Positions 12,001-18,000 are shown, numbered from the stretch's first letter. The stretch is 64,000 bases of DNA from Hormiphora californensis (GCA_020137815.1 CM035357.1:5890001-5954000), one strand, 5' to 3'. Notes: generated by a model from the sequence alone, not told the origin. A program made the numbers and translations.

Positions 12001-15000
12001 TTGTCGAAAGCTCCCTCGATGTCTAGGAACGTTCCCAGGGCTATGCCCTTGTGCATGAGGGTGCCTTCTAGCTTGCGTACTACTTTATGGAGGGCTGTTT
12101 CTGTTGAAACACCTCTTCTAAATCCATATTGCGACTTGTTTAGTTTTTTGTGTACTTTTTGGTCTACCTCAATGTGCCATAGAATTAGTCGTTCCATGAG
12201 TTTGTGGAGATTTGATGCCAGGGTTATTGTTCGGTATGATTTGGGCATACGGTAGTCATCCTTTCCTGGCTTGGGCAGGTATATCGCTTCTGCTTCCTGC
12301 CAGGATTTGGGAGTTATCCCTAGATTGTACGATGCCGTTGCTATTTTTGCGAATGGTTCAGCAATGATGTCTGCTATTTTTTGCATCATGATGGGCCTGA
12401 TACCATCTGGCCCAGCAGCTGTTAGGGGTTTGAATTCTTTCAGTGCCTTCGCGATACGTGTTTTTGAGAATGTTTTCTCGTCTGACCACTCTCCTTTTGG
12501 GGCTTCGGTTTTGCCCTTTAGGGATGGTCGAGTTGAGTGGTCTTCTCCAAAGTGGACATTTGCCATTATCTGTAGAGTTTCTTTGGGGGATTGTGTTAGT
12601 TCGCCATTTGGGTCAAATATACAGTTCAGATTGTAGTCTTTGCTGTGTTTGAGTACTTGGCTGACTTTTTGGGCATCCGAGTAGGAGTCTAGATCTTCAG
12701 CCCATATTCTCCAGTTCTTGACTTTTGATTGATTTTTTATTTTAGTATATTTGTTTCGAGCTGTGTTTGCCAAGTCCCAGTCCGACCTTGTCTTAGTGTC
12801 CTGGGCATGTCTTAGTTTATCAAACATCTCTACCCTAGCTGCTTTGACTTCTCCATTTAGCCATGGGGGGTCTTTGGAGTGGGCAGAGACGTATGTCTTT
12901 GGGGTACACTTATAGTATGCCCACAGCATTAGCTCTACTAGTTTTTCGTTGGCCCGCTCAAGTTCTTCTGCATTTGTTATTGTTATTTCGGTTAATCCTG
13001 TGTCTTCTAGGCCCTTTTCAACAAGTTGTTTGTATAGGGCCCAGTTTGTTTTCTTTATGTTGTAAAATGATCTTATTTTTCCTCCGTCCATGTCCCTCAA
13101 CACGAATGTGATTGGTACGTGGTCGGATCTACATTTTCCTTCTATTGTCTGCCAGTCTTTTATCATGTCCAGTGCTTGGTTGTTGGTCATGGTAAGATCT
13201 AGCACATTTTTTCTGGTTCCGTTGTTGTATGTGTGGGGGCAGTTTACGTTCGATACATGTAGGTCCAACTCTACAATTTTATCGAGTAGTGCCTCTCCAC
13301 GCTTTTTACCAATAGGATCTTTCACCGTTGCCCCCCAGCTAGAGTTGTGGGCGTTGGTGTCTGATCCTATTATTAGTTTTAGATTGTTGTTCTTCGCGTG
13401 GGCTGCCAGTTCCTCCAGTAGTTTTGGAGGGCACTCTAGCTCTCTGTCCATGTACATTGAGCATAGAATAGCTGACTTGGTGCCCAGTTTGATTAGAATG
13501 GAGACTGTGTCTCTGTTTGTGAATTTATCAAGTAGGAATACATTCCTGCCTAGGTTATTGTTGATTAGTATGCTTGCTCTTGGTCTCTCTGCCCTTTTGT
13601 CATATAGGGCGGTGAATCCTCCACTGGACCTTACTTTAGATGTTTTCCCTATTATAGGTGGTTCTTGAGCTAGGATGATTTGAGATCGAGTTTGGTTACA
13701 GCTTATGATGTCGTCCCACGCTTCGTGGCTTTTGTGTAGATTTATTTGGGTTACTCTGATGTTTTCATCGCCCTTATTTCTATTGTTTGTTTGGGGTTGC
13801 CGTGTCGGCCCCGGACTTTTTGGTTTGTCCTGGGCTTCTCGGGCTGGGTCCGATTTCCCTGTCCCTCCTTGATCGGAGCTCAAAGTTTTTCCCGTTGTTA
13901 GGAGTGGGGGTGGGGTCTGTCTCTTTTTCCCTCTAGAATTATCGTTTCTACCCGTGGCTCCCCTTTGCAGCTGAGTGGTTCTACCCGGGCGAGTGCCCGT
14001 TGGTTTTGGAGGGTGTGCCCTTGCTGGAGGGTGCTCCCTGTGGGGCTTCCTTTGGGTTGGAAGCCCCTGTTTTGTTGCTGAGGATTCTCGAGCTGGAAGT
14101 AGAGGGGAGTGAGAGCTCTCACTTAGAGGGTTAGTGAGTTTAGTATAATTCTCCATATAGCATGGTATTATGGCGGGTCAGTAATGGTATGCCCCGTTGA
14201 CTAGAGATAAGAAGAGACGCCTAGTGGCCGCGGCAATAAGGCCCCGTGGCCTGGGGGTCGGCGAGGTACACACCCTGGTGGCCTATAAAATAATATGGGT
14301 ATATAATGCTGAAATTATATGTGGTCATATGCTCTAGCTATCGTGCCCCTATGCTCGTGCACACCTGCATGTGAGTGCACAATGTATTGCATATGACCGA
14401 AATTGATATCTTGATAATTCTGGTTGGGTTGGGTCGAGGTGCCATATGGTGGTATCCCCTTGCCATCCGCCCCTGGGTCATAATTTATTCGGCTGAGCCC
14501 ACATATTCCGACTATGTAATAGGGCACACTCTTGCCTGGTTATTAGGGTTGGTGGTGAGATAGGGTGAAGGTGTGATTACCCTGTGCTCCCCATCCTGGT
14601 GCTACAGCAGGGGAAACGGCAAAAAGACAAAATAAGAAAGGGGGGGGGGTTAGTAAGAAGAGGTCTCACCTTGAGATGGGATGGAGATGGAGCTAGAGGG
14701 GAGAATAGGGTTGGTTAGGGGGGTGTTCGAGGGGAGCGCCACCAGTTTTGTTGTCTTATATTGTTTCTTGTTTATTTGGTCAAAGTTAAAAATGTTAAAA
14801 ATGTTAAAATTTGTTAAAATGGTTTAGATGGTTAAAAAGATCTTTATGTTTATTTTGTTTTTTTTTTTTTTTTTTTTTTTTTTTTTTTTTTTTTTTTTAA
14901 TTTTATTTGTGTCCCCGCGGCCACCGGGAGGGGGCAGGGGGACGCCATCCCAGCCATGTTGGCTCGGATGGCGCCTCAGGGCGCCTATGCGAACCAGAAG

Positions 15001-18000
15001 CTAACTGATCCCATGGCCGCCCTGAGGACCCATGCCCTGTCATCGAGACCGGCAACAAACTCCGGGGTGGCATCCACGAAGGCAGTGGTGCCAGCACTGC
15101 CTTCCACCTCCGGGAGCAGTTGCACGATCTCGATGCCTCCCGCTAGACCGGCAATGAGAGGCGGTATGGGTCCATTCGCCACCCGCAGCATGTTGTTGAT
15201 GGTAATGCTGCTGAGGTGGCGAAGGTCCCTGCCGCCTCTCATCCCCAAGCGGTAGCCCCCCTGGCTAATCCCTACAAACTGCCAGTCCGGGAGGCTAGAG
15301 AGAGCCTGCCTGGCAGCTTGCAGGGATTGTTCCTCCTGTACAGTGACGTAAAAGGAGGCGCCATCCCTCCTTACCTCGGAGATGATAAGGAGGGTGGGGG
15401 ACTCTTGAGAATAATGCCGGTTGACCATCTCGACCCTCAGCATTGGGATGGTCATCTCCCCCTCATCCCCCGTGAATCTCACATGGAGAGTTTGGGGTGC
15501 GGGGGGGAGAGGACCATCCGGCCTGCGTGGCCCGCCCCGGGCTGAGTTCCCTGGGGCTAGGCTTGGGGGCATGTTCTCAGGGGGGCCCGCTGCCCTGCCT
15601 TCACCTCTGTTGTTGGGGAGAAGGCGGGCTGGGGCTACTCTCCCTTGCCCCTGTGTTTGGCCGCCTGCCCTGCTGTCCCCGCTGTGATTTGGGGTGCGGC
15701 GGGCTGGGGCCCTGGGATTGGTAGTTTGGGGGTCGGCTACCCTGCCAACATCCCTTTGGTAGGGTTGTTGGCGGGTGGTGCCCCTTTGCTGGTTGGCGCC
15801 TCCCTCATAACCCCCCCTCCCTCCCCTACCTGCCCTCTGTTCCGCCCTCGCTCTTCTCTCCCTCCTGTGTATAGTCTTTGCAGAGGGTCCCTGTCTGGCT
15901 AACGGGGTTCCTATAGGAGAGAGAGGGTGAGGGAAGGGCGGGGTGGGAAGGGCGGGGTGTGGGTAGGGCGGGGTTGGTATATGAGGGAGACAAAGAAAGA
16001 AATCGCGGGAACGCGCGCGCTACCATACAGCTTGGAGGTCGATCCTTGCCATAGATGGCGGGCTCCGCGCGTTCCGCAAAGTACCTTGGGTCTGGGTGTG
16101 TCTAGATGGTGGTTCAAGTCCCTGCCCTCTGCCCTGTGTTCGGGGTGTGGGTGGGGTGTGGGTTAGTGGTCCTCTTCCAAGAGTGCCGATCTATGGAGGT
16201 AACATGTTTATACTAGTTAATTGTGTTGAGTGTTTGTTACTGGTTAGTTGTTATGTGAAACTTGTTTATTGGATTGGTTTAAATATGTTATGAGGTTGGT
16301 TACTGAGGTTGTAAATAGTTTTGAATAATATAGTAGAGGTTACCTCAAGTCCCTGCCCTCTGCCCAGTGTTCGGGGTGTGGGTGGGGTGTGGGTTAGTGG
16401 TCCTCTTCCAAGAGTGCCGATCTATGGAGGTAACATGTTTATACTAGTTAATTGTGTTGAGTGTTTGTTACTGGTTAGTTGTTATGTGAAACTTGTTTAT
16501 TGGATTGGTTTAAATATGTAATGTGGTTGGTTACTGAGGTTGTAAATAGTTTTGAATAATATAGTAGAGGTTACCTCATTCCAGGGAGTTCTGGATGGGT
16601 GGATGGGCATCGTAGGTGTGAGATCCAACGGGGGGAGGATTGGAGTGGTAGTTCTCTCAAGCACGGTACGGGCAGTGGGGGTTCTCTCAAGCACGGTACG
16701 GGCAGTGAGGGTACGGGGCGAGCGGGGGTTAGCACCGTCTTGCCCAGTAGACTAAGGGGGGAGTATACTATTAAAGAAGTTCTTGTAGTTTTGAGTTGAT
16801 TACTGATATTTGGTAAGTTTTAAGATGGTTACTACAATGTTGGAGGGTTTTGGATATACCTCTCCGTTTGTGGGGGTTGGTAGGAGAGGGGGTACTACTC
16901 CCATGTACCCTTCAATCTCTTCGCCGAGGAGACGTTCCTCGTCCTCTGGACTGATTCTTGCCGCTCTTACAGGTGATGGTCCTGCGGGGCTGTTGCTCTT
17001 ACGCTTGGTCATACTAGCTAGGGTGGAGGGTTATTTAGAAGATAGCCCTGGGGGTTGCCCTATGTAGGGTGACCCTTGGATGGTGGCAGAGTGATCTCAT
17101 GCTAGGGGGAGGGGGGTATAGGGGGGGGATGTGAGAGTTCTCACTATGGACCTTTTAATTGGGGTTTGGGCTGTGTTCCGGTATCTGCTGGTTTTCTACC
17201 ATTATACCTGGAATAATTTTGTTAGTAGTTTGGAATGTTGAATCTTATTTTATGGGGTTGGGTTAGTCCATGTTAGATGGAGAGACCCATTTCAGGGGGT
17301 GGTTGGTTTGCCCCTGGGTATGCTCTCCAGAGATGGAGTCTTTAGACACTATCGCTAGCTACATCCCTTGTAGGGTTGTGCTAGACGTTAGCCCCGGCCC
17401 GCACTCCATCAGGCGTAGGAAGGAATCTCACCCTCCGTTAGGTGGTAACACTCCCTTGTTCTAGGTGGTAACACTCCCTTGTTCTAGGTGGTAACAATCC
17501 CTTATTCTAGGTGGTAACACTCCCTTGTTCTAGGTGGTAACACTCCCTTGTTCTAGGTGGTAACACTCCCTTGTTCTAGGTGGTAACACTCCCTTGTTCT
17601 AGGTGGTAACACTCCCTTATTCTAGGTGGTAACACTCCCTTGTTCTAGGTGGTAACACTCCCTTATTCTAGGTGGTAACACTCCCTTATTCTAGGTGGTA
17701 ACAATCCCTTGTTCTAGGTGGTAACAATCCCTTATTCTAGGTGGTAACACTCCCTTGTTCTAGGTGGTAACACTCCCTTGTTCTAGGTGGTAACACTCCC
17801 TTGTTCTAGGTGGTAACACTCCCTTGTTCTAGGTGGTAACACTCCCTTATTCTAGGTGGTAACACTCCCTTGTTCTAGGTGGTAACACTCCCTTATTCTA
17901 GGTGGTAACACTCCCTTATTCTAGGTGGTAACACTCCCTTGTTCTAGGTGGTAACACTCCCTTGTTCTAGGTGGTAACACTCCCTTGTTCTAGGTGGTAA

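Follow-up and report, generated by a model that had tools for sequence, protein, structure and literature searches.

An APE-type LINE of Hormiphora californensis with a predicted intron-split ORF1 and a trans-spliced ORF1 RNA

Described retroelements and the Hormiphora locus

Long interspersed nuclear elements (LINEs) are copied from their own RNA, and coding introns should therefore vanish from them within one round. Survival of introns through retrotransposition is described for Penelope-like elements (PLEs), and the available portion of that source calls it highly unusual among retroelements and leaves its significance unexplained (PMC8557442). The locus described here lies in a 64-kb window (the whole stretch of DNA analysed, GCA_020137815.1 CM035357.1:5890001-5954000) of Hormiphora californensis, and all coordinates are those of this window. 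On its minus strand lies a multi-copy LINE, likely of ctenophore origin, whose ORF2 (ORF, open reading frame) encodes an APE endonuclease, a reverse transcriptase (RT) and RNase H, and whose ORF1 is interrupted by four intron-shaped segments, the first of which was found removed from RNA.

Introns that survive retrotransposition are shared with PLEs, as far as the accessible text of PMC8557442 describes them; the nuclease of PLEs is of the GIY-YIG type where there is one at all, their RT is related to telomerase and they carry pseudo-LTRs (LTR, long terminal repeat), whereas this element has APE-RT-RNase H and several ORF1 coding introns, and a GIY-YIG endonuclease gave no match in it. Human L1 RNA is spliced to give spliced integrated retrotransposed elements (SpIREs), and copies that lose 5' sequence in this way are dead ends; that splicing is cryptic and damages ORF1p, whereas here splicing would be needed to make ORF1p (PMC5860796, in the part available). 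In Trypanosoma cruzi, a trans-splicing host, the full-length RNA of the LINE L1Tc stays unspliced and is translated in that form according to the portion of PMC1874656 at hand, in contrast to the present ORF1, which goes through trans- and cis-splicing. The available part of PMC7986045 gives ctenophores as having no reported operons.

APE-type LINEs of the I/R1 group share with this element an APE-RT-RNase H ORF2, a C-terminal CCHC-like motif, an RRM-type ORF1 with a possible relation to Pfam DUF4780, a target-site duplication (TSD), a simple-repeat tail and 5' truncation. They differ in that here introns of the spliceosomal kind, of which introns 2-4 are predicted, divide ORF1 and persist in the DNA copies, the ORF1 mRNA receives a trans-spliced leader, and a poly(A) signal and a spacer of 830 nt separate the two ORFs. 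The usual LINE trait of a continuous ORF1 read from full-length RNA is absent: there are stops in all four introns, and intron 1 is removed in RNA. In copia and gypsy LTR elements one large region is spliced out, whereas here several small introns lie in one non-LTR ORF; copia gag and gypsy or retroviral env are made from spliced subgenomic mRNA for a structural protein, alongside an unspliced genomic RNA. The literature searched, with Repbase/Dfam entries, subscription papers, figures and supplements outside its scope, yielded no APE-type LINE whose ORF1 keeps coding introns or is trans-spliced, and the available parts of PMC11288735, PMC7175516, PMC9940879, PMC9977147 and PMC8226300 held no such element.

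Splicing of ORF1 RNA and intron retention in DNA

Assembled contigs were compared with the element; of the 15 sequencing runs listed, one (X13, a seawater metatranscriptome) is recorded as RNA. Two X13 contigs match 14905-17438. One of them, 319 nt long at depth 17.1 and with 1 mismatch over 293 aligned nt, lacks exactly 16752-16859 and carries 26 non-element nt attached at 17019; in minus-strand sense all 26, together with the genomic AG, equal the last 28 nt of the ctenophore leader given for Hormiphora in the available part of PMC8527503. From the leader match and the skipped segment it follows that ORF1 RNA is trans-spliced 5 nt before the ATG at 17012 and cis-spliced at intron 1; in this one contig, ORF1 RNA is a substrate of ctenophore spliced-leader trans-splicing. 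A search of the RNA contigs for the four junctions predicted by an earlier sequence-only reading of this DNA thus found that of intron 1; the X13 contigs do not span those of introns 2-4. The copy seen in X13 apparently carries one extra unit of the 30-nt repeat of exon 2 (16596-16712; record 1). X13 depth was 17-26 on ORF1 and 2.6-4 on ORF2 pieces, values that cannot rank expression and were not used.

The intron coordinates proposed by the sequence-only reading hold. All four segments have GT..AG ends (lengths 108, 153, 153 and 174 nt), and once they are removed the exons of 153, 177, 78, 106 and 926 nt form a 479-aa ORF whose sole stop is terminal; retention of any single segment, each of which had been said to contain an in-frame stop, halts ORF1 at aa 71, 136, 162 or 193. 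Introns 1-3 are A-rich, again as proposed (30-33% GC and 39-44% A, against 56-63% GC in the exons); unlike them, intron 4 lies within the exon range at 61% GC. AG/GT(A or G) sites in 17012-15880 are the four donors and no others. When generic sites were parsed, the top-scoring parse was the same as that proposed (514 exonic nt ahead of the last exon), and in 1,000 shuffled controls any valid parse was obtained once and 514 nt never. Introns 2 and 3 with the exon parts that follow them form one 231-bp tandem duplication (98% identical), so the introns count as three independent ones. All four lengths are multiples of 3, and the introns hold 9 stops in the ORF1 frame against 12 and 11 in the other frames; lengths kept divisible by 3 despite stops are most simply read as a relic. 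The window family appears, from its sequence, to have lost the coding capacity of its unspliced ORF1 RNA.

DNA evidence consists of assembled contigs, in which depth is not copy number. Run X3 (organism A) gave 168 contigs occupying 29 of 30 bins. They cross both splice sites of intron 1, both of intron 2 (or else of intron 3, its duplicate) and the donor side of intron 4, at intron-bearing depths of 605-1591; none of the 4 joints listed, in a listing down to 1% share, comes from X3. The search for precisely intronless copies that had been suggested thus found none among the DNA joints listed, and DNA contigs of two organisms retain introns. The second, organism B (run X9), retains intron 4 and the acceptor that ends it. 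The ORF1 exons in X9 have changed in length by -15, -15, -12 and -42; intron 4 has lost 20 nt and gained 17 nt, a net change of -3 provided that the whole gain falls within the intron, and the candidate spacer intron described below bears a +17 change, in contrast with the ORF1 exons. X9 contigs diverge into differing flanks at 17432-17436, which marks the 5' end of the element and several insertion sites.

The last 169 aa of ORF1 align with the ORF1 ends of four related loci (L001, L004, L005 and L006), a profile of which found 99 proteins; a search seeded with words of the ORF1 C-terminal domain picked up none of 795 candidates. A 74-homologue profile lacking the three closest kin of the window recovered the last exon among 725 window ORFs at E=4.5e-13, some circularity remaining in that the 74 sequences came from a search that included the window. 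Six of 34 homologues match Pfam DUF4780 at E<=0.01, one of them above the curated cut-off (L001 reaches E=8e-5, below the cut-off, and the ORF1 of the distant L014 E=3e-30); the domain of the window gave no Pfam match, DUF4780 included, at E<=10. The predicted model of the ORF1 domain (pLDDT 88) has two RRM-type domains; the top Foldseek matches are tandem RRMs (UP1, Sxl and nucleolin, E ~1e-4), and VIA Z is 7-8 for the first RRM domain, a middling score. The last exon is predicted from this model to encode a tandem-RRM, RRM-type nucleic-acid-binding ORF1 protein. ORF1 is the element's own and a LINE ORF1 homologue; capture of a host gene, raised earlier as a possible source of 14.9-17.4 kb, was looked for and rejected, given the homology of ORF1 to LINE-linked ORF1s of related elements and the copy evidence.

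The conserved domain lies wholly inside the last exon, exons 1-4 are of low complexity and diverge fast in organism B, and intron 1 is the only intron found spliced. These points would suit a reading in which splicing is partial and functional ORF1p comes from the last exon (e.g. from an internal ATG after trans-splicing to acceptor 15911), the upstream exons being a dispensable leader. This reading is very improbable: the leader is joined 5 nt ahead of the ATG at 17012, the first four exons hold 0 in-frame stops against 14 in the other two frames, and the exonic length changes in organism B preserve the frame.

Element architecture, relatives and non-coding signals

The features of the element are collected in Table 1. 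Both the 11-bp TSD and the GAA tail claimed by the sequence-only reading are present, the tail as (GAA)6, but the TSD length can be defined only modulo 23, because the element lies inside a 23-bp minisatellite. ORF2 is unbroken as claimed (1358 aa from the ATG at 14156), with domain matches in the order PF14529 (E=9e-17), PF00078 (E=2e-27) and PF00075 (E=5e-12). Contig coverage drops from 3' to 5' in runs X1, X7 and X11 (among identical-sequence X1 contigs from depth 1920 near 11300 to 837 near 14700), as expected of target-primed copying. By its ORF2 domain order, TSD, simple-repeat tail and 5'-truncated copies, the element is an APE-type LINE with RNase H. Its best named ORF2 relatives are Mnemiopsis leidyi proteins (41-45% identity), and in a quick tree of the window with 88 sequences out of 108 candidates (18 being too short and 2 giving no match) the window ORF2 falls in a 44-row clade (support 94) alongside four Mnemiopsis-labelled proteins; the RT may be LOA/R1-like. 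Together with the leader match, these relatives point to a ctenophore as the likely host.

Table 1. Features of the LINE and its insertion site, in the order of the minus strand
Feature	Coordinates	Strand	Basis
TSD 5' copy, 11 bp, within 23-bp minisatellite unit (array 17439-20585)	17439..17449	minus	
LINE element	17438-9900	minus	half of a 23-bp minisatellite array on either side
Structured 5' module; 6-bp hairpin 17436-17418, 7-nt loop, hatchet P1/L1-like	17310..17438	minus	
Outron (5' leader lost by trans-splicing), acceptor AG 17019-17018	17018..17438	minus	X13 leader joint
ORF1 exon 1, ATG at 17012	16860..17017	minus	sequence and X13 contig
Intron 1, 108 nt, phase 0, removed in RNA	16752..16859	minus	X13 joint; DNA contig X3 record 9 retains intron
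ORF1 exon 2, internal 30-nt repeat	16575..16751	minus	sequence; X13 covers part
Intron 2, 153 nt, phase 0, predicted	16422..16574	minus	sequence; DNA contig X3 record 8 retains intron
ORF1 exon 3, within 231-bp duplication	16344..16421	minus	sequence
Intron 3, 153 nt, phase 0, predicted, copy of intron 2	16191..16343	minus	sequence
ORF1 exon 4	16085..16190	minus	sequence
Intron 4, 174 nt, phase 1, predicted, CGCG-rich	15911..16084	minus	acceptor kept in organism B (X9 record 12)
ORF1 last exon; Arg/Gly/Pro-rich part, then predicted tandem-RRM domain (15494-14988)	14985..15910	minus	
AATAAA/ATTAAA and 50-nt A tract, ~80 nt past ORF1 stop	14849..14907	minus	sequence
Spacer splice signals: acceptor 14693, donor 14669, acceptor 14602/14596, donor 14580, acceptor 14283	14283..14693	minus	predicted
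Conserved non-coding element ahead of ORF2, with a possible double pseudoknot, a pyrimidine-AG (14201) and a hairpin	14157..14284	minus	
ORF2, 1358 aa, APE endonuclease, RT, RNase H, C-terminal CCHC-like motif	14156-10080	minus	
3' untranslated region and (GAA)6 tail	9900..10079	minus	sequence
TSD 3' copy (array 9602-9899)	9889..9899	minus	

The ORF1 and ORF2 halves could be separate, if an intron-bearing ORF1 gene or helper element with an A tail of its own had fused a single time with a LINE lacking ORF1, and the 5' half had spread through DNA duplication instead of reverse transcription. The 50-nt A tract with its AATAAA closes ORF1 in the manner of an element tail, the related locus L003 has a structured element directly ahead of ORF2 and no ORF1 in the 717 nt upstream, and contigs were compared with the two halves separately. 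A separate origin is nonetheless very improbable, as a single TSD encloses both halves, organism B has both at similar contig depth in runs of one sample (X9 23-57, X7 78) with several 5' flanks, and intron-shaped ORF1 and ORF2 stand together on single contigs in L001, L004 and L005.

Nine relative loci (L001-L009) have 38-42% ORF2 identity to the window. Four of them, representing three families (L001/L002, L004 and L005), hold the whole ORF1 region; L006, L007 and L008 are incomplete at ORF1 and were excluded from the intron comparison, and L009 has one candidate intron (154 nt, not a multiple of 3) that yields no open frame. A pyrimidine-AG lies 1-8 nt ahead of the ORF1 ATG in the three families. 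Their predicted phase-1 introns, one or two per element (117, 183, 234, 279 and 162 nt), are all multiples of 3 with GC below that of the exons, and the five introns of L001, L004 and L005 hold 0 stops in the ORF1 frame against 51 in the other two. Since these introns are stop-free multiples of 3, the unspliced RNA of the relatives could still encode ORF1, being readable as one frame of 560-660 codons that reaches ORF2. In long ORF1 homologues charged and hydrophobic blocks alternate, and the signature of a read-through donor (G followed by K, N or E) stands at the sharpest charged-to-hydrophobic step in 10 of 21 (2.9 expected, p=0.0002) and in 1 of 11 controls (ORF1s of more distant loci). 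Within-cluster ORF1 alignments are too similar to gauge constraint in the intron-like blocks. Among viral contigs there were 0 relatives; genome contigs held 18 loci, but in none of these was there a close ORF1 region that could be used.

A strong donor-like site stands shortly before the endonuclease domain in five relatives (L001 2374, L003 691, L004 2435, L005 2217, L006 1035); it could serve to splice ORF2 out of an ORF1 message, much as copia does for gag. CGCG/GCGC clusters occur in intron 4 (15911-16084) and in the last introns of L001, L004, L005 and L009 (each p<0.01 against base shuffles), and CGCG runs are also present elsewhere in the window. An E2F-like hexamer is found in the last intron of 4 of 5 elements, with clear enrichment only in L004 (p=0.002; others 0.04-0.12). 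As a signal shared by these introns the hexamer was dropped on account of that single enrichment and the CGCG runs elsewhere, and the last-intron CGCG/E2F-like clusters are a possible candidate for an intronic regulatory element. The LINEs L081, L082 and L083 lie on short contigs within bacterial metagenome-assembled genomes, likely as eukaryotic contamination.

The 5' module has a fold z of -2.3, its stem covaries in L004, and organism B contigs cease matching at 17436, the base of P1. The loop fits 6 of the 7 hatchet P1/L1 residues named in the available part of PMC6561176; the equivalents of C20 and C64 in the hatchet core pairs C20-G30 and G31-C64 differ, in a register set manually. At E<=10 neither the window nor L004 matched the Rfam hatchet model, and Rfam as a whole gave nothing credible in the element or four relatives. 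As a self-cleaving ribozyme the module is a candidate and a lead. Summed X3 depth is 13,000-41,000 at 17285-17438, compared with ~1,000-4,000 in the adjoining interior of the element, and loose ends occur at 17373; the 5' module (17285-17438) is common to a far more abundant repeat.

The A tract at 14849-14907 is likely the 3' end of the ORF1 mRNA, as judged from its signals, and organism B has A-rich, AATAAA-bearing letters near 14760-14772. None of the predicted splice signals of the spacer was found spliced among the 4 X13 contigs on 9915-14845. In organism B the spacer flanks are kept and 61 nt are replaced by 78 nt inside the first candidate intron. The segment 14580-14693 holds what looks like a model intron, with its donor at 14669, a branch-point motif and an extended pyrimidine tract; a short ATG-bearing exon stands ahead of donor 14580, and the lengths are not multiples of 3.

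The possible double pseudoknot with its pyrimidine-AG and hairpin is found at 14216-14284 of the window, 312-380 of L003 and 408-480 of L004, ahead of ORF2 in the window and L003 and ahead of the open ORF1 frame in L004; the L003 and L004 copies are 82% identical over 106 nt. The structure is a weak candidate in the window, whose copy was missed by the strict descriptor and has a fold z of +1.0; the same descriptor gave 2 matches in 75 kb of shuffled sequence.

Elsewhere in the window, a second, unrelated and broken LINE-type RT (37824-40446, minus) is interrupted by a 1-kb segment, possibly an ORF1-only insertion, in which a 336-aa ORF (38837-39847) resembles a coiled-coil ORF1-type protein. 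Intronless minus-strand ORFs encode an arylsulfatase (591 aa, 47308-49083) and a protein kinase (300 aa, 60400-61302), and a WD40 exon of a neurobeachin-like gene lies at 27465-28172 on the plus strand, which suggests that the two ORFs and the LINE may sit in introns. A 79-bp tandem array of 19 copies (24166-25670) has units that combine a pyrimidine tract with an AG acceptor and, close by, a GT, resembling a repeated micro-exon.

Template RNA and significance

We consider it very probable that ORF1 RNA gains the host leader and loses intron 1 (and, by prediction, introns 2-4), that DNA copies keep the introns, and that the RNA reverse-transcribed is probably the unspliced, full-length one. 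The proposal of the sequence-only reading that a spliced ORF1 mRNA coexists with an unspliced template is thereby supported by the RNA contig, the DNA contigs and homology, introns 2-4 resting on sequence and comparison; its further proposal, that the element actively discriminates between the two RNAs as retroviruses do, goes further than these data. The unspliced full-length RNA would serve as template, and the trans- and cis-spliced mRNA would end at the internal poly(A) signal and supply ORF1p in trans. A passive route is possible because trans-splicing strips the 5' end and the internal poly(A) site likely strips ORF2 and the 3' end. Without outron, ORF2 and 3' end the processed mRNA would be a poor template, and rare copies of it would be dead ends, so that intron-bearing copies would persist without a retrovirus-style export switch; active sorting of the two RNAs could therefore be dispensed with, though it may still take place. 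ORF2p might be translated from the unspliced RNA through internal initiation at the conserved element before the ATG at 14156, or from a second leader-capped mRNA. As to history, the relatives would have kept the same introns as stop-free multiples of 3, and the window lineage would have gained a separate entry to ORF2 and let its introns fill with stops.

Several points weigh against this reading. RNA support comes from one contig of one seawater metatranscriptome, spanning the leader and intron 1 only. The 4 X13 contigs on 9915-14845 showed no joint in the spacer or ORF2, and run X15 (guessed to be RNA) gave 0 matching contigs, neither result being evidence of absence. With the profile from the four loci alone, the last exon remained the top match but reached no better than E=0.043, and comparing profiles with L014 gave a weak result (probability 3.9%). 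Contigs were compared separately with 14905-17438 and 9915-14845, the A tract lying between. In organism B intron 1 aligns at >=80% where exon 1 fails to, so the introns are not visibly more neutral than the low-complexity exons. The introns of the relatives are predictions, and their open frames would fit plain coding equally; the bulk dipeptide test for the read-through donor signature was not significant (p=0.36), and the targeted test was designed after the data had been seen. Finally, assembled contigs lose rare variants, and rare intronless DNA copies may escape. Such losses, together with the dead-end fate of spliced human L1 copies in the available part of PMC5860796, would accommodate a reading in which spliced RNA is copied as well, its copies being rare or missing from the assemblies, and intron-bearing copies persist by keeping their 5' end (a SpIRE-like filter) with no bias in template; yet with X3 intron-bearing contigs at the depths given above and no intron-skipping joint listed down to 1% share, this is very improbable.

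Preferential copying of unspliced RNA can be extended, as a reading less likely than not, to an operon-like LINE. In this extension a hatchet-like 5' ribozyme would release the full-length RNA without a cap; this RNA would evade splicing and act as the template, host trans-splicing would cap ORF1 and ORF2 and resolve them into separate mRNAs, and the whole ctenophore clade would have passed through a stage of stop-free introns with lengths divisible by 3, which left the unspliced RNA translatable. If true, it would represent a polycistronic unit in ctenophores and a route to true introns for a retrotransposon.

An unspliced template would require ORF1p to work in trans, contrary to the usual cis-preference model. 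Gene callers miss or mistranslate ORF1 in such elements. The introns persist across a clade with only ~40% ORF2 identity, and the contrast between open introns divisible by 3 in the relatives and stop-filled introns in the window family opens to comparative tests the question of how a retroelement acquires introns and keeps them.

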